Positions 14,830-48,712 of a stretch of DNA of 64,000 nucleotides are shown piece after piece. Source of the stretch: an uncultured Actinomycetes bacterium (GTDB lineage Bacteria > Actinomycetota > UBA4738 > HRBIN12). The stretch covers positions 640,001 to 704,000 of the forward strand of contig CAVPIB010000004.1 of NCBI GenBank assembly GCA_963704885.1, in the 5' to 3' direction. Both the position numbers and the translations under genes were made by a program. Position 1 is the first letter of the stretch. Each line of letters begins with the position of its first letter. Below the pieces are notes generated by a model, which saw only the letters and a program-made list of their open reading frames with translations, ran no database searches and was not told the origin of the DNA.

Positions 14830-15327
14830 ATGTCGATCGCGATCAGGGAGGCGAAGGCCGAGGAACATGCGCAGGCAGGGGTCGTGACGGCCGAGGCGTA
14901 TCGCGAGTTCGCGCTCGAAGGCGACCCCGACTGGCAGGAGTACCTCGTGCGCCTGGCCGACGTCGCCGACCGCGCCTCGCGGACCACGATCCTGGTGGCC
15001 GTCGAGGGCGACCGGATCCTTGGAACCGCCACGCTGGAGCTGGACGGTAGGACCGAGCCGGAGGGTGATCCGCTCGGACCCGACGAGGCACATATCCGGA
15101 TGTTGGGGGTGGTTCCCGAAGCTCGCGGACGCGGGATCGGACGCCTGATCATGGAGGCCTGCGAGGTGCGCGCAGCGGCGTCCGGACGAACCCTCATCAC
15201 CCTCAACACGACACTGCGGATGCGGAGCGCTCAGCGGATGTACGAGTCGTTGGGTTACTCCCGAGACGACGATCGTGTGTTCCCCGACGGCTTCGTGTTG
15301 CTGTCGTACTCGAAGCGACTAGTCTGA
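14830..15327 (+). CDS. GNAT family N-acetyltransferase
   Basis: IRMLGVVPEARGRGIGRL and AQRMYESLGY. Confidence 0.85.
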   Translation: MSIAIREAKAEEHAQAGVVTAEAYREFALEGDPDWQEYLVRLADVADRASRTTILVAVEGDRILGTATLELDGRTEPEGDPLGPDEAHIRMLGVVPEARGRGIGRLIMEACEVRAAASGRTLITLNTTLRMRSAQRMYESLGYSRDDDRVFPDGFVLLSYSKRLV

Positions 15328-15338
15328 TACAGACTAGA
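15318..15338. repeat. Copy 1 of the dispersed palindrome ACTAGTCTG-N3-CAGACTAGT
   Basis: ACTAGTCTGATACAGACTAGA at the convergent GNAT/ABC junction. Confidence 0.75.
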
Positions 15339-15340
15339 TG

Positions 15341-17320
15341 TCAGGCATCTCCGGCTCCGCTGGCCGTCCGGACGATCTCGCCGCTCGCCAGGATCACGCC
15401 GTCCTCGAACTCGGCCTGGATGAGTCCACCGCGGAACTGCTGCTCGTAGAGCCGCGCATAGAGCCCGCCCCGCTCCAAGAGCTCCTGGTGCGTCCCGCGC
15501 TCCGCGATACGTCCGCGGTCGAGGGCGAAGATCACGTCGGCCTTCAAGATCGTCGAGAGCCGGTGAGCGATGGCGATCGTTGTCCTGCCTTCCATCAATG
15601 GTTCGAGAGCCGACTGAACCAGCCGCTCGGACGTGGTGTCGAGCGAGGACGTGGCCTCGTCCAGGATGAGGATCCGCGGATCCTTCAGAACCACGCGCGC
15701 GATCGCCAGGCGCTGCTTCTCTCCGCCGGAGAGCTTGTAGCCCCGCTCCCCCACCACGGTGTCGTACCCGTCGGCGAGCTCGGCGATCCGGTCGTGGATG
15801 TTGGCGGCCCGGGCCGCGGCCTCCAACTCCTCCTGAGTCGCTTCGGGCTTGCCGTACAGCAGGTTCCGCCGGATGGTCGTGTGGAAGAGGTAGGTCTCCT
15901 GCGTCACGACGCCGATCAGGTCGCCGAGGGATTCGAGGGCGATCTTCCGAACGTCGATCCCGTCTATCTCGACCGCCCCCTCCTGGACGTCGTATAGGCG
16001 CGGCACCAGGTAGGTGATGGTGGTCTTGCCGGCACCGCTCGGACCCACCAGGGCCGCAAGCTGCCCGGGGAGGATCTCCAGGTCCACGCCATCGAGCGTC
16101 CAGGGTCGCGGCGCCTCTTGGTCCACATCGGTCTCGGACACGACGACGTCGGGAGGCGAGATCGGGAGCCGGTCCGGAGGCGGCGTGTCGTAGTGGAAGC
16201 GGATATCGCGGAGTCGGACGTGCCCGCGGACCTGCTCCGGGTCGACCACGACCGGGTCCGGATCGTCCTGGATGTCCTGAGGCAGATCCATGTACTCGAA
16301 GATCCGGTCGAACAACGCGAACGACGTCTGAACGTCGTTCGAGATCTGCAGCATCGATCCGATCGGGAAGAAGATCCTGGACTGGAGGGTGGTGAACGCG
16401 ACGATCGTGCCCGCGGTGATCGCCGCCGGTTCGCTCGACGTCACCCATCCCACGACGAGGTAGGTCAACGCCGGCATGATCGCGAAGAACGTCCCGACGA
16501 TCGCGAAGAAAGACTGGCCGATCATCGTCTGACGGATCGTGAACCCGGTGAGTCGCTGGTTCTCCTCACGATATCGGTCGATCTCGTGTCGCTGACGTCC
16601 GAACGACTTCGATAGCAGGATGCCACTGACGCTCAGGGTCTCCTCGGTGATCGCGGTGAGGTCGGCGAGCGTCCTCTGGGTGTTGGTCGCGACCTCACGA
16701 CGGGCGCGTCCCACCTTGACGGTGAGCCAGATGAAGATCGGCGTGATGCAGAGCGACATCACCGTGAGCGGCCACGAAAGGAGAAGCATCGCGATCAGCG
16801 TGCTCAGGATGATCACGACGTTGGCGAGGAGGGAGGCGGCCGTGCTGGTGACCACGGATTGGACCCCGCCCACATCGTTCCCCAGCCGAGACTGGATCTC
16901 ACCGGTCCGGGTCGTGGTGAAGAACCGCAGCGGCATGAACTGCAGGTGCCTGTAGAGACCGTTGCGCAGGTCCTGCATCACCTTCAAGCCGATGAGGTTC
17001 GATAGATACGTCTGGCCGACACCGATCGCGCTCGTGATCATGGGGATGGCGATCATCAACGCGACGAGCCGATACAGGACGGGAAGATCGGGATGACACG
17101 CCGTCGCGGTGCAGTTCAGGCCCGTGTCGAAGACCTGCTTTATGAGCAGCGGGTTCACGATACCCAGGGCCGAGGTCAAGACGATGGCGACCCCGACCAC
17201 GACCACCCGACGTCGGTATGGACTGAAGGTCGCCACGACGCGGCGGACCGTGGTTCGCGTGATGGGACGCTTGTCCTCGTCCGAGAGGGGAGCAGCGAAG
17301 AAACGGCCGTGGCGACCCAT
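15341..17320 (-). CDS. ABC exporter, fused permease/ATP-binding protein
   Basis: N-terminal transmembrane domain (TRTGEIQSRL), GPSGAGKTT, LSGGEKQR and LILDEATSSLD. Confidence 0.9.
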   Translation of the reverse strand: MGRHGRFFAAPLSDEDKRPITRTTVRRVVATFSPYRRRVVVVGVAIVLTSALGIVNPLLIKQVFDTGLNCTATACHPDLPVLYRLVALMIAIPMITSAIGVGQTYLSNLIGLKVMQDLRNGLYRHLQFMPLRFFTTTRTGEIQSRLGNDVGGVQSVVTSTAASLLANVVIILSTLIAMLLLSWPLTVMSLCITPIFIWLTVKVGRARREVATNTQRTLADLTAITEETLSVSGILLSKSFGRQRHEIDRYREENQRLTGFTIRQTMIGQSFFAIVGTFFAIMPALTYLVVGWVTSSEPAAITAGTIVAFTTLQSRIFFPIGSMLQISNDVQTSFALFDRIFEYMDLPQDIQDDPDPVVVDPEQVRGHVRLRDIRFHYDTPPPDRLPISPPDVVVSETDVDQEAPRPWTLDGVDLEILPGQLAALVGPSGAGKTTITYLVPRLYDVQEGAVEIDGIDVRKIALESLGDLIGVVTQETYLFHTTIRRNLLYGKPEATQEELEAAARAANIHDRIAELADGYDTVVGERGYKLSGGEKQRLAIARVVLKDPRILILDEATSSLDTTSERLVQSALEPLMEGRTTIAIAHRLSTILKADVIFALDRGRIAERGTHQELLERGGLYARLYEQQFRGGLIQAEFEDGVILASGEIVRTASGAGDA

Positions 17321-17368
17321 GAGGCAAGGATACGGGCGCCCACCGATACGACCGCGGACGGCCAGGCT

Positions 17369-18073
17369 CTAGACGACCTCCGGATGGATGGGATCTTGCA
17401 CCAGGGAGCGAGCCCGGCTCATGACCTCGTCGAGCATCGAGGGTGTGAGCTTGCCGGTGAACGTGTTCTGCTGGCTGGGGTGGAAGCAGCCGATCAGCGA
17501 GTAGGGGGCTAGGGCGGCCTCCGCCCCGTGTCCGAACCGCGGCTTGGGCTTCGCGGAGTGGCCGAGCGTGGCGAGCGCACGCAGCGCCCCGTCCCAGGCG
17601 AACGACCCGAGCGCGACGATCACTCGCAACTCCGGCAGGGCCGCGATCTCGCGTTCGAGGAACGGGAGGCACGCGTCGCGCTCCTGGGGGGTGGGCCTGT
17701 TGCCCGGCGGAGCGCAACGGTTCACCGCGCTCACATAAGCGCCGTAGAGGAGCAGGCCGTCGCCGCGCGAGACCGACGTCGGTTGGTTCGCGAAACCGCA
17801 GCGGTTGAGCGAGGCGTAGAGGAAGTCACCCGATCGATCCCCTGTGAAGATCCGTCCCGTCCGGTTGCCACCATGCGCCGCAGGCGCGAGCCCCAGGATC
17901 AGCACGCGTGCGTCCGGATCTCCGAAGCCCGGCACCGGCCGGCCCCAGTACTCCTGGTCGGCGAAGCGAGCGACCTTCTCGCGAGCCGCCTGTTCCCGCC
18001 AGGCGACCAACCGAGGACATGCCCGGCAAGCGACGACTTCGGCCTGGACGTCGGTCAACATGTCGCGCGTCAC
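17369..18073 (-). CDS. udgB: Family 5 uracil-DNA glycosylase
   Basis: CRACPRLVAWRE, GLAPAAHGGNRTGRIFTGDRSG and FHPSQQNTFTGKLT. Confidence 0.9.
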   Translation of the reverse strand: MTRDMLTDVQAEVVACRACPRLVAWREQAAREKVARFADQEYWGRPVPGFGDPDARVLILGLAPAAHGGNRTGRIFTGDRSGDFLYASLNRCGFANQPTSVSRGDGLLLYGAYVSAVNRCAPPGNRPTPQERDACLPFLEREIAALPELRVIVALGSFAWDGALRALATLGHSAKPKPRFGHGAEAALAPYSLIGCFHPSQQNTFTGKLTPSMLDEVMSRARSLVQDPIHPEVV

Positions 18074-19698
18074 CGGCGCGCGGCCGCCCAGTCGTCGAAC
18101 CCCCCGATGGAGGACGTGACCTCGCCGTCGCGCACCTCCAGGATCCGATCGGGGATCCGGTCCAGCAGGTACCGGTCGTGCGAGATCACGATCACGGTCC
18201 CGTCGAACGCCTCCAGCGTGGACTCGAGCACCTCCATGCTCTCGATGTCCAGGTGGTTCGTGGGTTCGTCCAACAGCAGACAGTTCGCCCCGCCGAGCAT
18301 GAGCAGGCATAGCTGCAGCCGCGTGCGTTCGCCGCCGGAGAGCGTCCCCACCGGCTGGCGCATCTGCTCGTAGCGGAACAGGAACCGACCGAGGAGCGAG
18401 ACCGCGTCCTCCTCATACATGGGCTTCGCGTTGCGCACGAACTGGATAGGCGTGAGGTGCGGCGGCTCGGTCTCATGGCCCTGCGCCAAGTAGCCGAACC
18501 TCACCGACGGCCCCACCCATCGCTCCCCCGTCGTGGGCTCGATCGCACCCGTCAGCACCTGGCCGAGCACGCTCTTGCCGGCGCCGTTCGCACCTATCAC
18601 GCCCACGCGCTCGCCGCGCGTGATGGTGAGATCGACGTCCAGGAGCACCGGATCGTCTCCGAATGCCACGGACACGCCGCGGAGCTCCACGATCTTCTTG
18701 CCGCCCCGCTCCGTGGCGCGCATCTCGAGCGCGATCTTCCGTCGTTCGAACACCGGGCGGTCGACCTTGTCCATGCGATCGATCTGCCGCTGCTTGTTCC
18801 GCGCCTGCTTGATGTGGCGTTCGTCCACCACGATGCTCGCCCAGAGCTTGAACCGGGCGATCGCCTCTTCCAGCCGCGCGATCTCCTTCTGCTGAGTGAC
18901 GTAGAGCTGCTGCTGACGCTGGAGCGCGATCTCCTTCGCCACCGCGAACGCGGAGTAGTTGCCGGGCCAGAGCGTGATCCTCCCGTCGTCCAGCTCGGCG
19001 ATCTGATCGACCGTGTCGTCCAACAGGTATCTGTCATGCGAGATCGACACCACCCCGCCGGGGAACCCGGCGATCAGATCCTCCAGCTGCTCGCGCCGGT
19101 CGGCGTCCAGGTGGGTTTCGGGCTCGTCCAGCAGAAGCAGATCCGGCTGCCGGATGAGGCAGGCCGCGAGCGCGACCAGCTTCCGCTGTCCACCCGAGAG
19201 CTGAGTCGTCGGCAGCGCCAGATCGTCCTCGGGTATGTCGAGCGAGAGCAAAAGGCTTCGCACCTGGCCGGCCAGGCCCGGGCCGCCGATCTCCACCCAC
19301 CGGTCCAGCAACCCTTGCTGCCGAGTGAGGACGCGCTCCATCCGCGCCAGGTCCGCGATCACGTCCGGGCGAGCCAGCTCCTGCTCTACCGCGCGCAGCT
19401 GCCCGTCCAGGTCCGCCACATCGGGGCGCGCGGCCATGACCGTCGCCTCGGCGGTCCGCTCATCGCCGTCGGGGTTCTGATCCAGGTACGCGGTCACCAG
19501 CCCACGACGCCGGACCACCTCGCCGGCCGACGGCGTCTCGAGGTCGGCCAGGATCTTGAGCATGGTCGACTTGCCGGCGCCGTTGGGACCGACGATGCCG
19601 ATCCGGGCACGCTCCGTCACCTCGAAGTCCAGACCCTTGAAGACCGTCCAAGAGCCGAAGGACTTCTCGACGCCGACCAAGGCGGCAAGCGTGGTCAC
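18070..19698 (-). CDS. ABC-F family ATP-binding protein
   Basis: Two ATPase cassettes (GPNGAGKS/LSGGQ/DEP and GANGAGKS/LSGGE/DEPTNHLD), no transmembrane domain. Confidence 0.9.
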   Translation of the reverse strand: MTTLAALVGVEKSFGSWTVFKGLDFEVTERARIGIVGPNGAGKSTMLKILADLETPSAGEVVRRRGLVTAYLDQNPDGDERTAEATVMAARPDVADLDGQLRAVEQELARPDVIADLARMERVLTRQQGLLDRWVEIGGPGLAGQVRSLLLSLDIPEDDLALPTTQLSGGQRKLVALAACLIRQPDLLLLDEPETHLDADRREQLEDLIAGFPGGVVSISHDRYLLDDTVDQIAELDDGRITLWPGNYSAFAVAKEIALQRQQQLYVTQQKEIARLEEAIARFKLWASIVVDERHIKQARNKQRQIDRMDKVDRPVFERRKIALEMRATERGGKKIVELRGVSVAFGDDPVLLDVDLTITRGERVGVIGANGAGKSVLGQVLTGAIEPTTGERWVGPSVRFGYLAQGHETEPPHLTPIQFVRNAKPMYEEDAVSLLGRFLFRYEQMRQPVGTLSGGERTRLQLCLLMLGGANCLLLDEPTNHLDIESMEVLESTLEAFDGTVIVISHDRYLLDRIPDRILEVRDGEVTSSIGGFDDWAAARR

Positions 19699-20381
19699 GG
19701 TCGGTGGGTCGCGTTCATCTCGCGAAGCGACGGTGGTGGATCCGGCGCCTCCAGCCAGCGCTCCATGTTCGCCTTCACGGCGGGCCACTCTGAGTCGAGC
19801 AGGGCGTACCACGCGGTGTCGCGGTTGCGGCCCTTGATGATCATGTGCTGGCGGAACACGCCTTCGAACGTGAAGCTCAGGCGCTCAGCCGCCGTGCGCG
19901 ACCGGGTGTTCAACGCGTCGCACTTCCACTCGACCCGGCGGTGCCCCAGCTCGTCGAATGCGGTCCGCAGCATCAGGTACACGGACTCGGTGTTAGCCCG
20001 TGTGCGTTGCGCGCGCGGCGCGAACCAGATGTTCCCCAGCTCCAGATGGCGCATGTCCGGATCGATGTTCATGAACGTCACCAGACCGACCGGATCATCG
20101 GACCGGCGATCGATCACCGTGAAGAACATCGGATCGTCCGACTCTGGCAATGGGTCGATCCACAGGCTCATCGAACCCTGGTCAGCCCACGGCCCGTACG
20201 CCATGTACGTCCACATGCGCGCGGCTTCGTCGCTTCCGTCATGGGAGGCAGCGAACAACCCCGCGGCGTGTGCGTCCGGGTCCACCGGTACGAGCGACAC
20301 GAACCTGCCTTCGATCGGTTCGCGACTCGGACGCCGCGCCGGTGTCTGCGAGACCGGGTCGCCGATCGGGAGATCGCCCAC
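19695..20381 (-). CDS. RimJ/RimL-type GNAT acetyltransferase
   Basis: WTYMAYGP, ELGNIW, RRVEWKCDALN and GRNRDTAWYALLDSEWP. Confidence 0.85.
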   Translation of the reverse strand: MGDLPIGDPVSQTPARRPSREPIEGRFVSLVPVDPDAHAAGLFAASHDGSDEAARMWTYMAYGPWADQGSMSLWIDPLPESDDPMFFTVIDRRSDDPVGLVTFMNIDPDMRHLELGNIWFAPRAQRTRANTESVYLMLRTAFDELGHRRVEWKCDALNTRSRTAAERLSFTFEGVFRQHMIIKGRNRDTAWYALLDSEWPAVKANMERWLEAPDPPPSLREMNATHRP

Positions 20382-20383
20382 GG

Positions 20384-21706
20384 CTAGGATCCGCGCGCGG
20401 CGAGCGCGGCGTCGGCCAGCACGTCGAGCGCCTCGTCCAGCTGCTGGTCGGTGATAACGAGAGGTGGCAGGTGGCGCAACACGTTGTGGTACAGGCCGCA
20501 CGAGACTGTGATCAGGCCGCGCCGTTGCGTCTCGGCCATCAGCCGGCCGACGTAGTCTCCGTCCGGCTCCTTGGTCTCCCGGTCGCTCACCATCTCCACG
20601 CCGATCATCGAACCCAGGCCGCGGATGTCGCCGATCTGCGGCACGTCGCCGGACAGCTCCTCCCAGCGCGAACGGATCGCCTTGCCTACGATCTCGGCCC
20701 GCTCGATCAACCCTTCTTCCTCGATCACATCCATGACGGCGTTCGCGGCGGCGCATGCTACGGGGTTCCCGACGTACGTGCCGCCGATCGCGGAGGGACC
20801 GGGAGCGTCCATGATCTCGGTGCGACCGACCACGGCCGAGAGCGGGTAGCCGCTGCCGAGCGCCTTCGCCAGGATCACGATGTCGGGGTCCAGGCCGAAG
20901 TGCTCGCTCGCGAGGAAACGGCCGGTCCGCCCGCACCCGGACTGGATCTCATCGGCGATCGTGAGGATGCCTTGCTCGCGGCAGAGCGCCTGCACGCCCG
21001 GCAGGAACTCGGGCGCCGGCACGATGTAGCCACCCTCCCCTTGCTCGGGCTCGAAGATCACCGCCGCGACCGAGCGAGGGTCGACGACGGTGGTGAACGC
21101 GCGCTTCAAGACGTCGAGCGCGAGCTGCCCCGATCGCTCCGGGTTCGAGCTCCGATACGGATACGAGAACGGCACGCGGTAGACCTCGGGCGCGAACGGC
21201 CCGAACCCGCGCTTGTAAGGCGTGTGCCGGCTGGTGAGTGACATGGTCAGTAGCGTCCGTCCGTGGAACGCCCCCTCGAAGCACACGACACCCGGCCGTC
21301 CTGTCGCAGCCTTGGCGAACTTGACCGCGTTCTCCACGGCCTCCGCGCCGGAGTTGAAGAGGGCCACCTTGCGGTCGCCCCCCACGGCTCGGACCAACCT
21401 CTCGGCCAGCTCCACATAGACCTCGTACGGCACCACCGAGAAGTCCGTATGCGAGAACTTGGCTGCCTGCCGCTGTACGGCCTCCACCACCTTGGGGTGC
21501 GAGTGACCTACCAGGAGACACCCCAATCCGCTCGAGAAGTCGATCATGGTGTTGCCGTCGACGTCGGTGACGGCGGCGCCGAGCCCGTGGTCGATGACCG
21601 AGTTCACGTGCAGGTCGAGCGGGTCGCACACCACTCGTTCCTTGCGAGCGATGATCTCGCGCGAGTTCGGACCCGGGAGCTCGGTCAGCATCTCGATCGT
21701 GGGCAC
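20384..21706 (-). CDS. gabT: 4-aminobutyrate aminotransferase-like class III aminotransferase
   Basis: [44 protein letters not shown] and GGTYVGNP. Confidence 0.8.
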
Positions 21707-21784
21707 ACGTCCTCCTTGCGGCCTCGGGGTGAGCGTCAGCCGGGAAGGCTATCGCGGAGGTGGGGCGAGCGGCAGCGGGTCCGG

Positions 21785-22189
21785 CTACCGAGCCCCCAGC
21801 TCGCGGAACCGGGCCGCCGCTGACACGAAGACCTCGAGCGGACCAAGGAGCTCTTCCACGGCCCAGATCAGCCCTTCGAACCCTCCCAGCTCGGGCGCCT
21901 CCTCGCGGAGTCGCCGCGCCCGCCGAAGGGATTCGTCGATCCCGCGGTCGCACGCGGCCCAATCGGGTTCGACAGCATCCGCGCACCACGCCGGCATAAG
22001 CGCTCGCGCTCTCGTCACCCCTTCTTCGAACTCAAGCAACGCGTCGGGCAGTGAGCGACCCGGCATCCGCGTGGTCGGCATGACATCCGTGAGCGCCGCC
22101 TTCGCCGGCTCGATCTGGTCCAGGACCCTGCGGAACGCCGCGAACGAGGACCCGAGCTCAGGGGGCAGCCGTCTCCGACGGAGCCTCAC
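21785..22189 (-). CDS. Hypothetical helical protein
   Basis: GTG overlaps the stop of the upstream gene (GTGA) inside the operon; plausible helical sequence. Confidence 0.55.
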   Translation of the reverse strand: MRLRRRRLPPELGSSFAAFRRVLDQIEPAKAALTDVMPTTRMPGRSLPDALLEFEEGVTRARALMPAWCADAVEPDWAACDRGIDESLRRARRLREEAPELGGFEGLIWAVEELLGPLEVFVSAAARFRELGAR

Positions 22190-22980
22190 GGTCCGAAGGC
22201 CTCCGTCCGTGCGGCGACGATCGCGGCCGGGTCGTTCGTGGCGACGGCGTCCACCCCGGACCTCATCAGGGCGACGGCATCGGCAGGATCGTCGGTCAGC
22301 CATGTGCCTAGTCGCATCCCTTCCCCGTGTACGCGATCAGCCAAGGAGGATCCAGCGGCGAGCACCCCTCCAGCGAAAGGCAGGACCCAGGCGTGACCCT
22401 GATCCCGAGCGAACCCGAACGCGGCGAGCGGGTCGACGTCCTCTGTCGTGAGCAACCCTGTCGGAACGTCCGGCGCCAGCGCGAGCGCCCGCGCGATCGA
22501 GGAAGGGTTGAAGCTCGAGATCAAGACCGTGCCCACGAACGCCACCTCGTCCAGGGCGCGGAGCGTCGCCTCAACGGCGAGCTCGTTCTCGCCGTCGAAG
22601 TCAGGCTCGCCGGGGATGTTCTTGATCTCCACGTCCACGGCGGCCCGGCCGGACAGGCACGCGAGCGCATCCTCTAGCGTGGGCACCTCGACGAGCGCGC
22701 CGTCGGCCGTGCGGATCCTAAGCGCCTTCAGCTCGTCCAGGCGGAGATCGCGCACCAGGCCGTGTCCGCCGGTGGTTCGCGAAACATCCGGATCGTGCAT
22801 AACCACGGCGACGTCGTCGGCGGTCATCCGCACGTCGAACTCCACGACGTCTGACCCCACGGCCACCGCCGCGTCGAAAGCAGCGAGGGTGTTCTCGGCC
22901 TCCATGGCAGAGAACCCACGGTGCGCCACGACCAGCCTGTCGGCCTCTTGACTGAATCTTCGTTCAGACACTAGGCTCAC
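22186..22980 (-). CDS. Glycerophosphodiester phosphodiesterase
   Basis: VVAHRG, ENTLAAF, VEFDV, VMHD and DVEIK. Confidence 0.88.
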   Translation of the reverse strand: MSLVSERRFSQEADRLVVAHRGFSAMEAENTLAAFDAAVAVGSDVVEFDVRMTADDVAVVMHDPDVSRTTGGHGLVRDLRLDELKALRIRTADGALVEVPTLEDALACLSGRAAVDVEIKNIPGEPDFDGENELAVEATLRALDEVAFVGTVLISSFNPSSIARALALAPDVPTGLLTTEDVDPLAAFGFARDQGHAWVLPFAGGVLAAGSSLADRVHGEGMRLGTWLTDDPADAVALMRSGVDAVATNDPAAIVAARTEAFGP

Positions 22981-23003
22981 CCTACTCCCTGCCCTGCAGG
23001 CTC

Positions 23004-23321
23004 ATGGTCGAACCCACACGCATGATGATTGAACGGCGATTCAGGCACGACCCCGCCCATACGGTGTGGGTCGATCGGGCGCGCTGTATCGGCGAAGACC
23101 CGGAGCTCTTCTTCCCTATGGGCGCACCCTCGCTCGTACAGTCGCAGACCGGGCGCGCCAAGGCGGTCTGCCGAGGATGCCCGGTCCAGCCCGACTGCCT
23201 GGAGTGGTCGCTCGTGACGGCCCAGGACGCCGGCGTGTGGGGCGGCCTGGACGAGGACGAGCGGCGCGAGATCCGCCGCGAGCGGCGGCGAGCATCCACC
23301 CTCCAGGTCGTGCTTCGCTAG
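23004..23321 (+). CDS. WhiB family Fe-S transcription regulator (WhiB1/WblE-like)
   Basis: C...DPELFFP...AKAVCRGCPVQPDCLEW...GVWGG followed by a basic tail. Confidence 0.9.
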   Translation: MVEPTRMMIERRFRHDPAHTVWVDRARCIGEDPELFFPMGAPSLVQSQTGRAKAVCRGCPVQPDCLEWSLVTAQDAGVWGGLDEDERREIRRERRRASTLQVVLR

Positions 23322-23454
23322 CACGATTCAACCTGGGTCGACGCGATCCACCAGCGGTGTGATGATGACGCAGCTCTAGGTCCATCGGCCCTCCGACCTC
23401 CCCGGCCGGCGGGACATTCGTCGGCGGCTCCGCCGCCGGAGAGGGAGGGGTCAC

Positions 23455-25098
23455 GTGAGACGCGCTTCGATCATGTTCGCAACCATGTGCTTGCTCGCAT
23501 CACTGGTCGCCTCGACGGCAGAGGGCACAGCCCGGCAGCGTCCGGTACGAACGGCAGCGAAGGGCAACAGCCATATCCGCCGCTCGATAGACGGGATCGC
23601 GTCCGCGACTCGCCGACCGACGTCCAACTTCGTGGCGTCGTCGATCGACTGCACAGCCACCACCGCTCCGGGAGCGACCAATACGCAGCTCGACTGCGAC
23701 TCCGAGCTCCCGAACAACGAGCCGGACATCGTGGTCGACCCCGAGGATCCGCTCCACATGATCGCCAGCTCCAACGACTACGACCAGTGCTGCGACGCCT
23801 TCTACACCACGTTCGACGGTGGACAGACCTGGACGGTGGGCGACATGTCGAACGAGGGAATCAAGCGCACCGGCAGCGACCCCGTCACGGTGATCGATCC
23901 CAAGAGCGGGAACGCGATCCATTCCTCGCTGAACTACCGGTTCACGCCCGGCGGTGAGTCGACCGACGGCGACCTGGTGGTCTCGATCTCCACCGACGGC
24001 GGCATCACGTGGGGGAAGCCGGTCGTGGTGTCGGACGGCGAGGGCGCCGACAGCGCTCCGCTGCAGATCTTCAACGACAAGGAATGGATGGTCACGGACA
24101 CGGATCCCGGCTCGCCCTTCTACGGCCGCACGTACCTGACGTGGAGCCGGTTCGTGGCCCGCCACGGCCACTACAAGAAGTCGCCCATCTGGGAGTCACA
24201 CAGCGACGACGGCGGGTTGACCTGGAGCCCCGAGCAGGAGATCTCGGGCAGCGCGGCGTTCTGCACCTTCCAAACCGCAGGCGCCGCCGGCAAGTGCGAC
24301 GAGAACCAGTTCTCAGTCCCGGTCACGGCTCCGAACGGGACCGTCTACGTGGCTTTCGAGAACGGCCAGAACTCATCGGCGTGGGAGTACGGCCGCGAGT
24401 GGGAGAGCAGCTACCTGGTGGTCCGCTCGACGGACGGCGGCGTCACGTGGAGCCCGCCCGTGAACGCCGTAGACCTTGAGGACGGCAAGCACGACCTGCC
24501 CCAGTCCGTGTTCGGGCGCCAGACGCTGAACGGGTACCAGCTGCGTGTGAACTCGGCGGGCAACATCGTGGTGGGAGGTAACGGGACCCTTTACATCGTG
24601 TTCGCGGATAACCGCGCCGGCACGCACGACGTGCCGGATCCGATCACCGACATGAACATCTACCTGGTGATGTCGACGGACGGCGGGGTCACTTGGAGCG
24701 CTCCCACCGCTGTGGACGCCGGTCCGAGCGACCAGTGGTTCCCATGGGCCGACATCAACCCGGTAACGGGGCAGCTCGGCGTCATCTACAACACCCGCGA
24801 TGCCGCGAACCCCGATCTGTACAACGCGGGGTACGCCGTAGGCACGCCGGGATCGTTCACTCGCTCGATCGTGAGCGCGAATCCATCGGACCCCACGAAC
24901 TCGCTCTTCTTCCAGACGAACGCACCGGGCTGCAAGAAGTGCGCATCGTTCAACGGCGACTACCTTGGACTCGACTTCGGGTCTGACGGCCGGGCCAACC
25001 TGGTTTGGACCGACATGAGCGTGCTGACGGACACGTTCGGCGGGGACCCACTGCCGCATCCACGAACCCTGCAGTTCATCTTCTTCGCACGCGTCTGA
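23455..25098 (+). CDS. Secreted BNR/Asp-box repeat (sialidase-fold) protein
   Basis: Signal peptide; five Asp boxes (TFDGGQTW, STDGGITW, SDDGGLTW, STDGGVTW twice); C-terminal GDY motif. Confidence 0.8.
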   Translation: MRRASIMFATMCLLASLVASTAEGTARQRPVRTAAKGNSHIRRSIDGIASATRRPTSNFVASSIDCTATTAPGATNTQLDCDSELPNNEPDIVVDPEDPLHMIASSNDYDQCCDAFYTTFDGGQTWTVGDMSNEGIKRTGSDPVTVIDPKSGNAIHSSLNYRFTPGGESTDGDLVVSISTDGGITWGKPVVVSDGEGADSAPLQIFNDKEWMVTDTDPGSPFYGRTYLTWSRFVARHGHYKKSPIWESHSDDGGLTWSPEQEISGSAAFCTFQTAGAAGKCDENQFSVPVTAPNGTVYVAFENGQNSSAWEYGREWESSYLVVRSTDGGVTWSPPVNAVDLEDGKHDLPQSVFGRQTLNGYQLRVNSAGNIVVGGNGTLYIVFADNRAGTHDVPDPITDMNIYLVMSTDGGVTWSAPTAVDAGPSDQWFPWADINPVTGQLGVIYNTRDAANPDLYNAGYAVGTPGSFTRSIVSANPSDPTNSLFFQTNAPGCKKCASFNGDYLGLDFGSDGRANLVWTDMSVLTDTFGGDPLPHPRTLQFIFFARV

Positions 25099-25114
25099 TC
25101 GGGCGAACGGTTGA

Positions 25115-25142
25115 GGGTCTCCCGGCGATAGCCGGGAGACCC
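25115..25142. terminator. 12-bp perfect hairpin between convergent genes (probable bidirectional terminator)
   Basis: GGGTCTCCCGGC-GATA-GCCGGGAGACCC. Confidence 0.7.
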
Positions 25143-25148
25143 GGGCGC

Positions 25149-25799
25149 TCAGACCAGGCTCGAGGGACAGAGGTCGCTGACCGGGCACTCCTCGCACCTC
25201 GGCTTGCGCGCGACGCAGATAGACCGACCGTGGTCGATCAAGGCGTACGTGAAGTCGAACCACCGCTTCCGCGGGATCGACCGCATGAGGTCCCGCTCGA
25301 TCTTGTCGGGATCCTTCTCGGTGCTGAACCCCAGGCGTTCCGCGAGACGTCGCACGTGGGTATCGACGGCGATCCCCTCCACGACGCCGTAGGAGTTGCC
25401 GAGCACGATGTTCGCCGTCTTCCGCGCCACTCCGGGCAACGTGATCAGGTCCTCCATGGTGTCGGGGACCTTGCCGCCGTGGACCTCCACGATGCGTGAG
25501 CACGCTCCCCGGATCGACTTCGTCTTCTGGTTGAAGAACCCGGTCGACTTGATATCGGCGGCCAGCTCCGAATCCGGGACCTTCAGGTAGTCCTTCGCGG
25601 AGCGGTACTTCTTGAAGAGATCCTTCGTGACCATGTTGACGCGTTCGTCCGTGCACTGCGCGGACAGGATGGTCGCCACCAGGCACTCGAGCGGGTTGGA
25701 GAAGTTGAGCGCCACATGGGCGTCCGGGTACGCCTTCGAGAGGCGCTTCACGATCTCGGGAGCGCGATCCTGGATAGGGGAATCACGGGTTAGCGCCAT
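25149..25799 (-). CDS. nth: Endonuclease III
   Basis: ILSAQCTDERVN, HhH motif LPGVARKTAN, AVDTHV and the Fe-S motif CVARKPRCEECPVSDLCPS. Confidence 0.95.
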   Translation of the reverse strand: MALTRDSPIQDRAPEIVKRLSKAYPDAHVALNFSNPLECLVATILSAQCTDERVNMVTKDLFKKYRSAKDYLKVPDSELAADIKSTGFFNQKTKSIRGACSRIVEVHGGKVPDTMEDLITLPGVARKTANIVLGNSYGVVEGIAVDTHVRRLAERLGFSTEKDPDKIERDLMRSIPRKRWFDFTYALIDHGRSICVARKPRCEECPVSDLCPSSLV

Positions 25800-26521
25800 C
25801 AGCTCATCAGTTCGAGCGAGAAGGCGTCGCCGCTCGCGTGGTCCGCCCAGCTGCCGCCTTCCCAGATGTGCACCCCGGAACGGCCGGCCACGGACCATGA
25901 ATGGCCGTCGCCGACCATCGCCGTCTCCTCATCGATCGCCACCAGTCGCCCACCCTCGGGAACGGCCTCGGTCATGAATGCCCTGGCCCCTGGGATCCAG
26001 GTATCTATCATGTCCCAGTGCGGACCGAACAACGTCCGCGGGACGAAGCCCAACCCTGGCTTGAACACCTGTTCCAGATCGTCGGCGTCGGAGTCGAACG
26101 TCAGCTCGGTCAAGCACGCGACCCCCGCGCTGCAACCTGCGTAGGCCAGACCCCGACCCAGACGATCCAGCATGACTCGGCAGAACGCGGAGTCCCGAAG
26201 CGTTTCGGCCAGGTACCAGGGGTTCCCCCCGGAGAAGAAGACGACGGACGCCGAGGATAGGTCGTCGACGTACTCAGGGCGCTCGGCATCCTCACGGGTC
26301 CGGATGGGTAGCACCCGAGCAACGATCCCTGAACGTCCGTAGTGCTGGAGGCCCTTGTTCGCCCAGCCTTCGAAGACCTCGTCACCCTCGCGCGCAGACG
26401 CGGTGGGTACGATCAACACCGACCCGTCGCCGTCCGAGTGCTCGAGCAGCCAACCGTCGACGTCGTCGTGCCAAGACTCGAACTCGCCCGACCCCATGAG
26501 CGCGAACGCACCTTCGCTCAT
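25799..26521 (-). CDS. Peptidase S51 (peptidase E/cyanophycinase-like) protein
   Basis: VPTAS, FFSGGNP, catalytic GCSAG, PHWD and AIDEETA. Confidence 0.75.
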   Translation of the reverse strand: MSEGAFALMGSGEFESWHDDVDGWLLEHSDGDGSVLIVPTASAREGDEVFEGWANKGLQHYGRSGIVARVLPIRTREDAERPEYVDDLSSASVVFFSGGNPWYLAETLRDSAFCRVMLDRLGRGLAYAGCSAGVACLTELTFDSDADDLEQVFKPGLGFVPRTLFGPHWDMIDTWIPGARAFMTEAVPEGGRLVAIDEETAMVGDGHSWSVAGRSGVHIWEGGSWADHASGDAFSLELMS

Positions 26522-27702
26522 ACCCCGGCCTCGGCGATCGCTTTCGCGAAGCCCGGGATCGCTCGCTCCACCATGTCATCGTTCGCAGTAAGCGAGATCC
26601 GGAAGTACCCGGGCATCTCGAACATCGCACCGGGAAGCACATACACGTCGTGACCGACGAGGATCTTGCAGAACGCCTCGTCATCTTCCAAGGGTGAGCG
26701 GACCAAAACGTAGAAGGTCCCCTCAGGCTCGATCGCGTCGTACCCCTGTTCGCGAAGAGCACCGACGAGGCGGTCGCGCCGTCGCTGAAGCGTGTCGACG
26801 TTGACCGACAGCTTCTCGAGCTCTGGGATGGCGTGCTGCAGAGGCGCCACCGGGAAGGCCCACCCGAACATGATCTGCCCTACGAGCAGAGGGACGCGGA
26901 TCTCGTCGGTCTCGGGCATGTCCGGTGGCGTCGCGATGTAGCCGAGACGAGACCCGGGTGAGAGCAACGTCTTCGCGTACGTGTAGATGAGGAACGAGTG
27001 AGGGTAGTGCGCGACGGGCGTGGGGAAGACCCTCCCGTCGAACACCACTCGGTTGTATGCCTCGTCCGAGAGCAGGAAGATCCGTCTGCCGTTTCGCTCG
27101 GATGCCTCCTCGAGAAGCCGCGCGAGGTCGTCCAGGAGCTGAGGCGGGTAGATCCGGCCCGACGGGTTGTTGGGCGAGTTCACGATGATCGCCCTCGTGC
27201 GCGGCGTGATGGCGGCCGCGATAGCGTCCAGATCCAGGTCGAACGTGGTCCGGTCCGCATAGACACGCACAGGTGTCGCGAGTGATCCGACGATGAGGGC
27301 CTCGTAGAAGAACCACGGCGGTGACACGAAGATCACTTCGTCACCTGGGTCCACCAGCAACCGCAGCACGATGGCGAGGCCGGAGAAGTTCCCGTTCGTC
27401 ATGTGGATGTCGTCGTCGCGGAACGCGAGTCCGAACCGATGGCGGAGCCCGGCCCCGATCGCCGCCGTCGCCGACGGGAGGTCCATGGTGTATGCGTAGT
27501 GATCCTTGCCCGTCGGTTCCGTCCCGCCCCGCAGAGCCTCAACGTAGCCGGGCACAGGTAGATCCTGCGGATTGCCGAACATGAAGTCACACGACTCTGG
27601 CCGGCGCAGGGCTTCCCATAACTCGTCGGCCGTTCCGAACTCGGCGAACCTCCCGAGCCCGTTGATGATCGCTTGCATCTGTTCGGACACCGAGCCGTCC
27701 AT
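26518..27702 (-). CDS. Class I/II PLP aminotransferase
   Basis: FGNP, NSPNNPSG, SDEAYN and TYAKTLLSPGSRLGY. Confidence 0.88.
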   Translation of the reverse strand: MDGSVSEQMQAIINGLGRFAEFGTADELWEALRRPESCDFMFGNPQDLPVPGYVEALRGGTEPTGKDHYAYTMDLPSATAAIGAGLRHRFGLAFRDDDIHMTNGNFSGLAIVLRLLVDPGDEVIFVSPPWFFYEALIVGSLATPVRVYADRTTFDLDLDAIAAAITPRTRAIIVNSPNNPSGRIYPPQLLDDLARLLEEASERNGRRIFLLSDEAYNRVVFDGRVFPTPVAHYPHSFLIYTYAKTLLSPGSRLGYIATPPDMPETDEIRVPLLVGQIMFGWAFPVAPLQHAIPELEKLSVNVDTLQRRRDRLVGALREQGYDAIEPEGTFYVLVRSPLEDDEAFCKILVGHDVYVLPGAMFEMPGYFRISLTANDDMVERAIPGFAKAIAEAGV

Positions 27703-29390: not shown

Positions 29391-31403
29391 ATGGCTCGAA
29401 TGCCCGACAGCAACGGACGCGGATCGCGCAACCGCTGGACCCCCGACTCGGGCGGTTCCGGAGGCTCCGGCACGCCCAGGCCTCGATTCAGCCCTTGGCT
29501 CGCCGTCCCTCTCCTTCTGCTCGGGATGCTGCTCTTCAGCAGCTACCTCAACAACGCGGGCACCCGCCAGATCGACCTCTCCACGTTCCTCGCCTACGCG
29601 GAGCAGGGGCAGATCGTCGGCACGGTGGAGATCTCGTCATCCAGCGTCTCCGGCGAGTTCAAGCAAGACGGCGAGACCACCAAGTTCAGCGCCACGCTGC
29701 CGCCCGGGTACGACACGTCCACGCTCACCACCCAGCTGGATGAGCTCAAAGTCGATTACAAAGGCGTGCAGCCGAGCGTGTTCACGTCGCTCATCCTCAA
29801 CATCCTGCCCTTCGCGCTGGTGATGGTGCTCATCTACTACTTCGTGTTCCGCAAGATGGGAGGGGGGGCGGGTTCCGCGCTCAACCTCGGCCGCAACAAG
29901 GTGAAGATCTACGACCGCAAGGAGATGAAGACCAGCTTCAACGACGTCGCGGGCGTGGACGAGGCCAAGGAGGAGCTCGGCGAGATCGTCGACTTCCTGA
30001 AGAACCCCAAGAAGTACCAGCGACTGGGCGGGCGCATCCCGAAGGGTGTGCTGCTGCTCGGGCCTCCCGGGTGCGGCAAGACCCTGCTCGCCCGCGCCGT
30101 CGCCGGTGAGGCCAACGTGCCGTTCTTCTTCATGTCGGGCTCGGAGTTCGTGGAGATGTTCGTGGGCCTCGGGGCCGCGCGCATGCGTGACCTGTTCCAG
30201 CAGGCTAAGGAGAAGGCGCCGGCGCTGATCTTCCTGGACGAGATCGACACCATCGGCAAGGGACGGGGCGGGGCGATGGGCGCCGGTTTCGGCGGACACG
30301 ACGAACGCGAGCAGACGCTCAACCAGCTGTTGGTGGAGATGGACGGATTCGACTCGTCGAAGGGCGTGATCATCATGGCCGCCACCAACCGTCCCGACGT
30401 GCTGGACCCGGCGCTGATCCGTCCCGGCCGCTTCGACCGCCAGGTCGTAGTGGACCGCCCCGACCTGCGGGGCCGTGAGGAGATCCTGCGGGTGCACGCG
30501 CGCGGCGTGGCTCTGGACCCCGACGTCGATCTGCACACGATCGCCTCCCGCACGCCAGGCTTCACGGGCGCCGACCTGGAGAACGTTGTGAACGAGGCCG
30601 CGCTCCTGGCCGCGCGTCGCGAGAAGAACTCGGTCACGAAAGAGGAGCTGGAAGAGGCGATCGACCGCGCCAGCATGGGACTGGAGCGCCGGTCACGCGT
30701 GATGAGCGAGAAGGAGAGGATCCGCGTGGCCAGCCACGAGATGGGTCACGCGCTCGTCGCCCACTTCAGCGAGAACCTGGACCCCGTCCACCGCGTGACG
30801 ATCATCCCCCGCGGGACGGCCGCACTCGGCCTGACCATGGTGCGACCGCTCGAGGATCGTTACCTCGCCACCGAGCCCGAGCTGAACGAGATGCTTGCGT
30901 TCGCCATGGGTGGGCGCGTGGCAGAGGAGCTCTGCTTCGAGGAGATCTCGACCGGCGCGCAGAACGACCTGGAGCGCGCGACGCAGGTGGCGCGCGCCAT
31001 GGTCACGGAGTACGGCATGAGCGAGAAGGTCGGCCCGCTCTCGCTCGGCCACGAGGACGCCAACTCCATATTCAGCGCGCCCAAGATCTCCGGGCAGACC
31101 GCCGAGGCGATCGACCAGGAGGTCAACAGGCTCCTCACCGAGGCGCACGATCGGGCCGAGAGGATCCTGCTGGAGCACCGGCAGCTGCTCGACGACCTGG
31201 CGGCCTTGCTGCTCGTAACCGAGTCGATGGATGGAGCCGACCTGGAGGCTTACGCCACGGGAACCAAGCCCATCCCTGATCCCGCCACGGCACAGCCGAA
31301 CGGCAGGAAGACGGTCCGACCCACCCCCGAACCTCAAGAGGCGGCATCCTCCGGGGTTTCACCCGCGGGACCACCTGCGCCGCCGATGCCCGCCTTAGAC
31401 TAG
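29391..31403 (+). CDS. ftsH: ATP-dependent zinc metalloprotease FtsH
   Basis: Two transmembrane segments, [30 protein letters not shown] and [10 protein letters not shown]. Confidence 0.96.
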
Positions 31404-31419
31404 TCCAGCACAGACTAGT
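31399..31419. repeat. Copy 2 of the dispersed palindrome
   Basis: ACTAGTCCAGCACAGACTAGT spanning the ftsH and glycosyltransferase stop codons. Confidence 0.7.
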
Positions 31420-32359
31420 CTCCGCGAGGACGAGGCTCATCGGGCGGCTCGCCTGACACCGTGAGGTCGTAGCGGTCGCGCCAGCGGTCCAGGAATCTGT
31501 AGAAGTTCCGTTTGGACCACTTGGCTCGCTCTTCGGGCGGCGTCTGGAACCACATCCGATGCTCGTGCCGCTCAACCGGCACGGGAACGACCAATGCGCG
31601 CAAGCCCTGATCCTTGATGCGGAACGAGTATTCGATGTCCGCCGTGCGGTACCAGCGGAACTTCTCGTCGAACATCCCGGCGGTCGTGAGGATCTCTCGT
31701 CGGAACGCCATGAGGTATCCCTCGACCGCGTCGCACTCCGGCCCCTCGGTCGTATCGAACTCGCGGAGGTCGGGCGACACGATCCCGAACGGCCCGCACA
31801 CCCCAACCGTCGGGTCTTCGAGCGCGGCCTCCAGCGGACCCAAGACGTCACCCGTTGCTTCGACGGATCCGTCCATGGCAAGCACGACGCGACCCCGCGA
31901 CCGTTTCAGTCCGGCGTTTCGGGCGGCGGCCCACCCCGTTCCCTCCTCGAGAGATACGACCTCGACCTCGTCGCCGAACACCGACGGGACCAGGCCCGTG
32001 ACGTCGGCCACCACGTATTGCACCCGACGCGCGCCCGCGTTGGATCGGAACGATGAGATGGCCCGGACGACGTCCTCGGGCCAGCCCTCGACGACCCAAT
32101 GGATCGAGACGTCGGCCGTCGCGGGTTGGTCCAGGACGGACCCGACATCGGTCGCCCGCAGGCGAGCCGGGCCTTCGCCCGCCGTCGATCCGGCGGCGAG
32201 GAGCGGTTCGAGGCGCCACCCGTCGGGTTCGTCGACCACGGTCCAACCAGCTGCGACGATCCGGTCCCTGAGTTCGTCTGCCCCCGCGAAGTCCTTCGCG
32301 GCGCGCCGTTCGGCGCGTTCGTCGGCCAGATCTCGAACGTCTCGTGGCGCCTCACCCAT
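31415..32359 (-). CDS. GT2-like glycosyltransferase with an N-terminal CysRS C-terminal-like helical domain
   Basis: N-terminus ERAERRAAKDFAGADELRDRIVAAGWTVVD; then GWAAARNAGL, FDEKFRWY and DIEYSFR. Confidence 0.75.
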   Translation of the reverse strand: MGEAPRDVRDLADERAERRAAKDFAGADELRDRIVAAGWTVVDEPDGWRLEPLLAAGSTAGEGPARLRATDVGSVLDQPATADVSIHWVVEGWPEDVVRAISSFRSNAGARRVQYVVADVTGLVPSVFGDEVEVVSLEEGTGWAAARNAGLKRSRGRVVLAMDGSVEATGDVLGPLEAALEDPTVGVCGPFGIVSPDLREFDTTEGPECDAVEGYLMAFRREILTTAGMFDEKFRWYRTADIEYSFRIKDQGLRALVVPVPVERHEHRMWFQTPPEERAKWSKRNFYRFLDRWRDRYDLTVSGEPPDEPRPRGD

Positions 32360-35585: not shown

Positions 35586-35659
35586 TCGCGGGGACAGGAT
35601 TTGAACCTGTGACCTCTGGGTTATGAGCCCAGCGAGCTACCGGACTGCTCCACCCCGCA
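35586..35659 (-). tRNA. Initiator tRNA-fMet (CAT); CCA not encoded
   Basis: TGCGGGGTGGAGCAGTCCGGTAGCTCGCTGGGCTCATAACCCAGAGGTCACAGGTTCAAATCCTGTCCCCGCGA; GGG/CCC anticodon stem and non-Watson-Crick 1:72 pair. Confidence 0.95.
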
Positions 35660-46802: not shown

Positions 46803-46805
46803 CGT

Positions 46806-47918: not shown

Positions 47919-47972
47919 CTACGCCGGGCCAGGCCCGAAGTGGGTAAACCAGCCATAGACGTAGTCACGCAT
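47919..47972 (-). CDS. Aromatic-rich leader peptide MRDYVYGWFTHFGPGPA (aroF attenuator)
   Basis: 17 codons with Y, Y, W, F, F clustered; lies between a promoter-like sequence and the terminator. Confidence 0.8.
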   Translation of the reverse strand: MRDYVYGWFTHFGPGPA

Positions 47973-47982
47973 GTCGGCCGCC

Positions 47983-48012
47983 ATGGTGTCAGACCCGCCC
48001 CGACCGTGGCAA
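47983..48012 (-). promoter_or_regulatory. Putative promoter of the leader-aroF transcript
   Basis: TTGCCA-N18-CACCAT with a TGn extension. Confidence 0.5.
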
Positions 48013-48072
48013 GCGGCAGCCCCCTTCGGGCCAGACGTCCTATGCGGGGGCCGCTCGGCGTAGGATGCGCAC

Positions 48073-48696
48073 ATGCTTACCGTCCTCGACCACCCGCTTG
48101 CCGCCGATCTCCTGACCAGGCTCCGCGACAAGCGGACCGGCCCGGCCGAGTTCCGTTCGCTCACGCGACGACTCGGCGCCGTACTGGTCGTGGAGGCCAC
48201 ACGCCAGATCCCGACCGTCCCTTCAGAGGTCCAGACACCGCTCGAGCCATTCACGGGGTCGATGCTCGGCGTCGACCTGGTCGCCATCCCCGTCCTGCGC
48301 GCCGGTCTGGGACTGCTCGACGCGGTAACCGACCTGTACCCGGACACGGTGGTCGGCTACCTGGGCATGGAGCGAGACGAGGAAACACACGAGCCACGTG
48401 ACTACTACGCGAAGCTGCCCTCCATGCAGGGGCGCCACGCGCTGCTCCTCGACCCCATGCTCGCGACCGGAGGCTCAGGCTCGGCGGCCTGCGAGTTCGT
48501 GAAGAAGGCCTCGCCGCGCAACATCACGTTCGTGTGCGTGGTGGCCGCGCCGGAGGGCATCAAACGCATGGAGGCCGATCACCCCGACGTGCCGATCGTG
48601 GCAGGCGCCCTGGACCGCCAGCTGAACGAGAACGCCTACATCCTTCCCGGCCTGGGGGATTTCGGAGATCGTCTGTACGGGACCGAGCCTCACTAG
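48073..48696 (+). CDS. upp: Uracil phosphoribosyltransferase
   Basis: PVLRAGLG, RDEET, DPMLATGGS and YILPGLGDFGDRLYGT. Confidence 0.96.
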   Translation: MLTVLDHPLAADLLTRLRDKRTGPAEFRSLTRRLGAVLVVEATRQIPTVPSEVQTPLEPFTGSMLGVDLVAIPVLRAGLGLLDAVTDLYPDTVVGYLGMERDEETHEPRDYYAKLPSMQGRHALLLDPMLATGGSGSAACEFVKKASPRNITFVCVVAAPEGIKRMEADHPDVPIVAGALDRQLNENAYILPGLGDFGDRLYGTEPH

Positions 48697-48712
48697 TCTG
48701 GCTCAGACTAGT
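48692..48712. repeat. Copy 3 of the dispersed palindrome (perfect)
   Basis: ACTAGTCTGGCTCAGACTAGT at the convergent upp/permease junction. Confidence 0.75.

Follow-up and report, generated by a model that had tools for sequence, protein, structure and literature searches.

Why should one and the same 21-bp palindrome lie across the ends of facing genes at three separate junctions of a GC-rich bacterial chromosome? The question was raised by a 64,000-nt stretch of DNA from an uncultured Actinomycetes bacterium (here called the window; C4:640001-704000 of the source assembly G000, which has 3.015 Mb, 67% G+C and 20 contigs). We found that the three copies belong to a family of 63 unique sites dispersed over the 3.0-Mb genome, most of them at gene 3' ends, and comparison among relatives indicates that the palindrome is most likely the operator of a PadR-family regulator encoded outside the window. 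The copies in the window and the genes that flank them are as follows.

15318..15338, no strand: palindrome copy 1 (ACTAGTCTGATACAGACTAGA), between the GNAT and ABC-transporter genes
31399..31419, no strand: palindrome copy 2 (ACTAGTCCAGCACAGACTAGT), both TAGs being stop codons (ftsH and the GT2 gene)
48692..48712, no strand: palindrome copy 3 (ACTAGTCTGGCTCAGACTAGT), its first TAG being the upp stop codon
14830..15327, plus strand: GNAT acetyltransferase gene (Pfam), with its TGA stop within copy 1
15341..17320, minus strand: ABC transporter gene (membrane and ATPase parts; Pfam), ending 2 nt beyond copy 1
29391..31403, plus strand: ftsH (Pfam), its stop being the first TAG of copy 2
31415..32359, minus strand: family-2 glycosyltransferase (GT2) gene (Pfam), its stop being the second TAG of copy 2
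48073..48696, plus strand: upp, uracil phosphoribosyltransferase (Pfam), its stop being the first TAG of copy 3
48729..49703, minus strand: branched-chain amino-acid permease gene (Pfam), ending 16 nt beyond copy 3
35586-35659, minus strand: tRNA gene, the sole Rfam match in the window

An earlier note, made from the letters of the window, had reported these three copies, and a pattern search confirmed them with 1, 2 and 0 mismatches to ACTAGTCTG-N3-CAGACTAGT for copies 1, 2 and 3; no other match with up to 3 mismatches was found in the window. In 100 dinucleotide-preserving shuffles the mean was 0.01 matches, and none reached 3. ACTAGT, which had been seen nowhere else by eye, occurs 5 times in the window and every time inside the three copies, and Pfam agrees with the convergent pairs GNAT/ABC, ftsH/GT2 and upp/permease at all three junctions. 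The statement that stop codons do not explain copy 1, as neither of its CTAGs is one, held only in part: the motif does contain a stop, the TGA of the GNAT gene inside TCTGA (15325-15327). The stop of the ABC gene (15341-15343) lies 2 nt past copy 1 and that of the permease gene (48729-48731) 16 nt past copy 3.

The note had made its reading depend on further copies in the genome, and they exist. The 21-mer at up to 4 mismatches gave 70 matches in G000 before redundancy filtering. Sites at C2/C3/C4:985912, C9/C11 and C12/C13/C1:25867, several of them on small contigs, have the same or nearly the same flanks and thus reveal redundant assembly pieces (the contamination figure of the assembly is 4.5%); the redundant sites were dropped before counting, and a threshold of at most 2 mismatches over 14 fixed core positions then left the 63 unique sites. 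The consensus of these sites is A-CTAGTC-Y-G-(A/t)-N-(T/a)-C-R-GACTAG-T, in short form A-CTAGTC-Y-R-N3-Y-R-GACTAG-T. Lone half-sites are scarce, with 23 of ACTAGTCTG and 27 of CAGACTAGT across the whole genome, and the half-site variants CTAGTCCA and CTAGTCTA are also in use among relatives. Some variants change both halves together: the site downstream of upp in G011 (L104; L103 in G001) is CGAGTCCGTGACGGACTCG, where CTAG has become CGAG in both halves and the perfect palindrome is kept, and the second operators of some padR genes, which read CTGG...CCAG, show a likewise symmetric change (L019).

Placement and spacing statistics were computed on crude gene calls, based on G+C content at third codon positions (GC3), that cover ~80% of the genome. 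A gene 3' end lies within 25 nt of 49 of the 63 sites, but of only 2.6% of positions drawn at random from the genome and 9.7% of those drawn from intergenic DNA, and 22 sites have such ends on both sides (0.5% at random). With 33 sites convergent, 23 tandem, 6 intragenic and 1 divergent, the suspected enrichment at convergent junctions was borne out; the random intergenic share (~20%) would have given ~11 divergent sites. Among 71 adjacent 3' ends, 38 stop at the motif's own TAG and 5 at the TGA in TCTGA. The truly intragenic sites (n = 4; G000:C2:32194, which equals C3:19104 and C4:985913, as well as C1:206628, C1:544541 and C1:585696) use the sole open frame, CTA GTC TGN NNC AGA CTA, translated L-V-C/W-x-x-L, and the one at C4:985913 is matched by a site in G012 (L045). 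No common function links the flanking genes (ftsH, upp, groEL, der, parB/ddl, glnA, gcvT, asd, uppS, kasA-like, nuoD, lepB, greA, P450 and transporters), and these diverse housekeeping functions display no regulon logic. The idea that the sites follow highly expressed genes was rejected, albeit on weak proxies: 72 site-adjacent and 2280 other genes gave p=0.07 for GC3 and p=0.33 for the effective number of codons.

The genome as a whole has its own habits in stop codons and AT-rich words. TTAA occurs only 145 and AATT 256 times in its 3.0 Mb, versus 2153 for CTAG. TAG is the stop of 790 of the 2352 called genes (34%), which is high for 67% G+C. In roughly one in ten convergent pairs (~10%) the two genes share 4 nt or more (10th-percentile gap, -4); a shared CTAG would give a 4-nt overlap.

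Junction conservation was assessed by comparing the exact sites of three relatives with the orthologous G000 junctions under a strict 150-nt criterion. The G000 junction also had a site in at least 12 of 18 cases for G012, at least 15 of 19 for G007 and at least 6 of 14 for G017, a member of a different genus; the flanking proteins are 42-96% identical, and the N3 spacer differs. For copy 1, the orthologous G012 junction carries a site (L047). The note had proposed the 3' ends of ftsH and upp as places to look for conservation, and both have it. A site lies on the ftsH stop in 8 of the 11 examined genomes of genera g1 and g6, including G000, with exact hexamers in G000, G001, G002, G008 and G012 and 1 mismatch in G006, G011 and G017; it has decayed in two others (half-decayed in G007, degenerate in G004) and was not found in 20 other genomes examined. 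The upp site is exact in G000, G003, G006 and G007, where it overlaps the stop or lies 7-9 nt beyond it, degenerate in G001, G004, G011 and G017, and absent, with nothing in its place, from G005, G008, G012 and all more distant genomes examined. Replacement by a terminator was likewise rejected, as nothing substitutes for the site at the upp junctions that lack it. This retention at some orthologous junctions and loss at others indicates that the sites are under selection yet individually dispensable, and that exact overlap with a stop codon is not required.

For the identification of a binder, which the note had left to pull-down, comparative genomics proposes a candidate: a NapM-like PadR regulator with the motif in its own promoter region. 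The gene (182 aa; G000:C1:491267-491815, outside the window) matches PF03551 (PadR) at 1.5e-20 over residues 10-84, and NCBIfam PadR-type models match it weakly, under their cut-offs. Its best PDB match is 8JXK (E=1.7e-11, 47.6 bits, ~33% identity over residues 6-142 as estimated from the alignment), which is NapM of M. tuberculosis (10.1101/2024.11.29.625984). Two tandem copies of the motif (C1:491205 and C1:491230) lie 17-62 nt upstream of padR, after a terminator-like hairpin. A scan of GTDB species genomes gave 29 padR orthologue loci (56-85% identity), all in metagenome-assembled genomes of uncultured Actinomycetes/Actinomycetota, and all 28 that have upstream DNA carry the motif there, 27 with at most 2 mismatches and 1 with 3, at 24-123 nt upstream of the tblastn match start. 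At many of these loci the last TAG of the motif opens a -10-like hexamer (TAGAGT, TAGACT or TAGTGT). Upstream of two non-orthologous matches the motif was not found. A HAD-IB phosphatase gene (TIGR01490) follows padR in 29 of 29 loci (C1:491863-492708 in G000). The orthologue of G018 is a 176-aa protein for which TAG is the natural stop.

The homodimeric PadR protein would bind the palindrome, and with one or two copies overlapping the -10-like hexamer it probably represses its own operon, to judge by the position of the sites. Sites also lie upstream of two CDP-alcohol phosphatidyltransferase genes, at G000:C1:443358 (after greA) and G000:C4:267441 (after der), and both are conserved in relatives, in G017 and in G012/G007. 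Taken with the HAD-IB gene in the regulator operon, they hint at a small true phospholipid-synthesis regulon, reminiscent of the link between NapM and inositol and phosphatidylinositol mannoside (PIM) lipids.

We then considered motif and gene together in 201 genomes of the order, using the loose pattern CTAGTC-N7-GACTAG, an orthologue threshold of E<=1e-35 and a motif call of at least 3 sites. Orthologue and at least 3 sites occur together in 43 genomes and are both missing in 141, while 12 have the orthologue with 0-2 sites and 5 the sites only; the reversed pattern, used as a control, gave 0-5 matches per genome. In one motif-only genome (G073) padR is cut by a contig end. The HAD gene, too, is missing from the other four (G027, G033, G047 and G199; 81-93% complete); 39 of 41 relatives possess it, the exceptions being G027 and G033, so the padR-HAD locus is probably unassembled in all four, for G047 and G199 by inference only. 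The whole GTDB class comprises 294 genomes in one order, of which 98 have the pattern and, by our own count, 71 have it at least 3 times. Related genomes are not independent, so these counts are descriptive; some of the genomes in them are marked as unpublished (G008, G029, G037, G102, G154, G183 and G206), and no claim is based on these alone. The motif in the padR promoter region together with this co-occurrence makes a PadR operator the most likely identity of the palindrome, and we regard it as likely that the PadR homologue is the binder.

Two of the alternatives deny that the palindrome is a binding site at all, and a third accepts the site and assigns it to another protein. We hold with high confidence that it is a double-stranded DNA site for a dimeric protein, as the note had favoured over an RNA hairpin. 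An element acting in the mRNA, a 3'-end hairpin that terminates or stabilises the transcript in the manner of a repetitive extragenic palindrome (REP), would suit the palindromic form and the position at 3' ends, and hairpins of -10 to -21 kcal/mol are predicted. It is nonetheless very improbable, since covariation is lacking: the variable Y/R stem pair is complementary in 41 of 63 sites versus 37.8 expected (P=0.23), flank positions beyond the core pair no more often than by chance (all P>0.18; 63 sites), and in the sites of G024, counted by hand, the Y/R pair varies independently and the palindrome often reaches a single central base. The stems hold 4 G-C pairs of 9, the hairpins of copies 1 and 3 (-10 to -14 kcal/mol, z -1.1 to -1.8) stay within the range of shuffles, and the better fold of copy 2 is due solely to its flanks. 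An intrinsic terminator was rejected after a scan of 15000-34000 revealed no stem with a T-run at the junctions of copies 1 and 2, in agreement with the note's remark that the junctions lack a GC hairpin. The Rfam search of the window returned no family that matches the motif; a search for Y1/RAYT transposases (PF01797) was negative in G000 (97% complete) and positive in 6 of 14 control genomes; and the motif occurs in padR promoter regions as well. The note had based its preference for a protein on the broken inner pairing of copy 2: the preference stands, through the lack of covariation, and the argument does not, as CTAGTCCA is an ordinary half-site variant common in relatives.

Insertion at CTAG on convergent stop codons, which would make the copies footprints or preferred targets of an insertion sequence (IS) or a miniature inverted-repeat transposable element (MITE), had been named in the note as a refuting outcome and is hardly credible. 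When the 63 sites were compared all against all by BLAST of their 200-nt flanks, similarity appeared only in the overlapping padR pair and in one paralogous gene pair, so the sites are not MITEs or IS scars; they are also retained at orthologous junctions across genera with a variable N3 spacer. A different protein could bind all sites and regulate the padR-HAD operon too, PadR being merely one of its targets, and any gene with an equal phyletic pattern would fit the co-occurrence and promoter position on which the case for PadR is built. This is improbable: PadR proteins are dimeric winged-helix DNA binders that often repress their own gene, the motif stays with padR in G017, where it occupies a divergent promoter region and the upstream neighbour differs (L095), and in G021 and G013, both without a padR orthologue, the HAD gene lacks the motif upstream.

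The sites are not only numerous but also evenly spread. On the large contigs of G000, 55 gaps average 38 kb (approximately one site per 40 kb), and their coefficient of variation, 0.70, falls short of the 0.92-0.96 obtained when sites are placed uniformly, at gene 3' ends drawn at random or at randomly drawn convergent junctions (three null models; P=0.003-0.014). Gaps shorter than 10 kb number only 2, where 10-11 would be expected (P<=0.0002). Gaps below 15 kb are missing altogether from G012 (4.9 expected, P=0.003), from G007 (3.2 expected, P=0.02) and from G017, G174 and G125 pooled (3.5 expected, P=0.01). GC skew puts the replication origin near C1:160-190 kb (parB at 191 kb) and the terminus near C4:240 kb; density on C1 and C4 is 1-4 sites per 100 kb, zero in the last bin of each contig, and 2-4 at origin and terminus. 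A macrodomain-type distribution, as with matS, parS, SlmA-binding (SBS) or Noc-binding (NBS) sites, was rejected in view of this like density at the origin, at the terminus and elsewhere. The chromosome-organisation site that the note had considered thus gains some support from the even spacing and loses the regional distribution of matS, parS, Noc or SlmA sites, being present at both origin and terminus. The smallest distance between sites is 16.3-17.1 kb in four relatives, like the 16.1 and 17.3 kb of the window, and the closest pair of G012 is the orthologue of window copies 1 and 2. The closest pairs are listed below.

G012, C2:592847-609934: closest site pair
G007, C2:627286-643908: closest site pair
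G017, C5:268087-284846: closest site pair
G174, C7:47569-63874: closest site pair

What, then, would the protein do at some sixty sites whose flanking genes show no regulon logic? The reading that we put first, and to which we give an even chance, combines an operator of a homodimeric NapM-type PadR protein with additional sites that serve as fixed docking points on the chromosome. In this genus and several related ones such additional copies number in the tens, nearly all of them in the short non-coding stretch that follows a gene's 3' end, mostly where two genes converge. The additional sites would hold the protein in place for a nucleoid-associated, domain-anchoring or bridging function, as reported for NapM, and would not act as operators of the adjoining genes. 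Promoters and most reading frames would be closed to them, and this would set their position. Where genes are packed tightly (median convergent gap, 38 nt), deletion pressure may push a site against a stop until its TAG is the stop, and the CTAG ends of the site can serve as TAG stops on either strand. We infer both the binding by PadR and the effect of binding; the site family, its placement, its conservation and its co-occurrence with the gene are observed. A more specific proposal, that a NapM-like PadR at ~50-60 convergent junctions, with a marked shortage of sites closer than ~10-16 kb, splits the chromosome into domains by bridging or blocking, is unlikely as it stands; if true, bacteria would have, in these sequence-specific boundary or anchor sites, their own version of insulator-type boundaries, and the mechanism of NapM-type PadR proteins would become accessible.

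The note's other idea was a protein-dependent terminator. A bound PadR dimer might act in both directions as a roadblock or insulator and so keep transcription of one gene from running into a convergent or tandem neighbour: the sites come directly after stops and favour convergent junctions (33 of the 372 called convergent junctions have one, versus 23 tandem sites and 1 divergent), a symmetric site suits action both ways, and the junctions of copies 1 and 2 have no T-run hairpin that resembles an intrinsic terminator. Junction placement and the missing hairpin fit this idea; the geometry fits poorly. In most cases the stop codon is inside the site or within ~15 nt of it, and at E. coli roadblocks polymerase halts more than 10 nt before the bound protein, so a stable block would leave mRNAs of housekeeping genes such as ftsH without a stop. 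Moreover, 128 of 136 convergent junctions with a gap below 15 nt lack a site and are too tight to hold a hairpin, junctions that lose the site show no replacement, and an insulator for each junction would not predict the shortage of close pairs. We consider the roadblock rather unlikely, and the same holds, somewhat more strongly, for a classical or antisense regulon. There, the sites would overlap promoters through an inward -10-like TAGTCT, controlling downstream genes at tandem and antisense RNAs at convergent sites, with a core regulon perhaps in envelope-lipid synthesis. TAGTCT is present in 73% of half-sites, and some tandem sites lie 0-135 nt upstream of genes that include ilvC (35 nt), a DUF179 gene (39 nt), a universal stress protein (USP) gene (41 nt) and the two CDP-alcohol phosphatidyltransferase genes; the regulator's own operon encodes the HAD-IB phosphatase, and loss of NapM is described as de-repressing inositol and polar-lipid genes (PMC13340245). 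However, a divergent setting is seen for only 1 of 63 sites but for ~20% of random intergenic positions, the neighbouring genes have no function in common, a final T completes the outward hexamer TAG-N-N-T at only 16 of 126 half-sites, and orthologous sites have not kept the -10-like T: in each of the 8 genomes where the ftsH site survives, its ftsH-side half reads TAGTCC. The roadblock or terminator reading and the promoter or antisense reading are therefore both ranked below docking and anchoring.

Several observations weigh against PadR docking as well. The link between protein and site comes from the comparative genomics of related, non-independent genomes, and both the sites and the padR-HAD operon could be under a different factor that happens to share the phyletic pattern. 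The identity to NapM is only ~33% by our own estimate, and the motifs differ. Fewer than 3 sites are found in 12 of the 55 orthologue-bearing genomes, so the protein can fulfil its basic role without the dispersed sites. Individual sites are lost without visible replacement (the upp junction in G005, G008 and G012), and the 38 of 71 adjacent 3' ends that stop at the motif TAG could point to a role at the end of transcription or translation. Finally, the spacing tests depend on the crude gene calls, and most sites of G012 and G007 have orthologues among those of G000.

Among known systems, SlmA (SBS), Noc (NBS), MatP (matS) and ParB (parS) each have tens of palindromes, a dimeric binder and a chromosome-wide job, and SlmA, too, is a transcription-factor fold (TetR) that has been put to chromosome-wide use. 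The present sites resemble theirs in having tens of specific palindrome copies and a role that would be chromosome-wide rather than gene-specific. In contrast, the sites of those proteins are confined to or excluded from regions, whereas origin and terminus are included here, and the protein family differs; we know of no junction placement for SlmA, Noc, MatP or ParB sites. REPs and bacterial interspersed mosaic elements (BIMEs) of enterobacteria are also short multi-copy palindromes at 3' ends and between convergent genes, but they are structure-conserved, clustered and linked to REP-associated tyrosine transposases (RAYT), whereas here there is no RAYT and no covariation, and single copies keep their positions across genera. 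Characterised PadR operators, such as ATGT-N8-ACAT of Bacillus subtilis, are likewise inverted repeats; a winged-helix dimer binds them and controls its own promoter, as is proposed here. Such regulators have a single promoter operator or a small number of them, whereas over 95% of the present sites lie elsewhere than at the regulator gene and almost none are in divergent promoter regions.

The closest parallel is NapM. The published form of the preprint (PMC13340245, of 10.1101/2024.11.29.625984) describes it as a PadR-family homodimer that reportedly bridges DNA in vitro; loss of NapM is stated there to de-repress ino1 and inositol-phosphate metabolism and to alter PIM lipids, and the authors question its status as a nucleoid-associated protein. 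For Rv0047c, Supplementary file 5 of Minch et al. 2015 (PMC4301838) lists 634 ChIP peaks, all with the palindrome ccGATatATCgg (E=5.7e-269), of which 461 fall beyond the promoter windows and just 7 are classed as "in and expressed"; in Supplementary file 3, 169 of the 222 strongest peaks (76%) are intragenic. As these peaks are mostly non-regulatory, a PadR-type protein with many AT-rich, largely non-regulating palindromes is on record. NapM/Rv0047c and the protein described here share the PadR family, a length of 182 aa, a two-domain layout and, on the view taken here, many AT-rich palindromes in a GC-rich genome, mostly outside promoters and, on the Rv0047c side and within those files, with few expression effects. 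Here, of the 63 sites, 1 is divergent and 2 are at the regulator's promoter. The motifs differ, with a 12-bp GATATATC core for NapM and the 19-21-bp CTAGTCYR-N3-YRGACTAG here, and so does the placement, 76% of the strongest NapM peaks being intragenic compared with 6 of 63 sites here, most of which are on gene 3' junctions; the present sites are also fewer and evenly spaced, and the neighbouring gene encodes a HAD-IB phosphatase. The protein is not a NapM orthologue, given the ~33% identity, the HAD-IB neighbour and the restriction of NapM to Mycobacterium, in which the preprint says it occurs exclusively (10.1101/2024.11.29.625984).

Literature searches for the 8-mers CTAGTCTG/CAGACTAG with PadR, and for PadR with convergent genes, palindromic sites and ChIP-seq, returned nothing on this motif at the level of the search listings. 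PadR proteins are usually seen as local repressors, with mycobacterial NapM a puzzling exception for its hundreds of sites and its disputed status as a nucleoid protein. The system described here would be a cleaner natural case: one long recognisable palindrome in a few dozen copies, placed almost wholly at junctions and not at promoters, conserved across genera, evenly spaced and found together with the gene. It illustrates that, where genes are tightly packed, one binding site may come to include the stops of two neighbours, and it matters for annotation, as such palindromes are easily taken for terminators, REPs or MITE scars. Set beside NapM, it makes tractable the question of whether NapM-like PadR proteins organise DNA or regulate genes.

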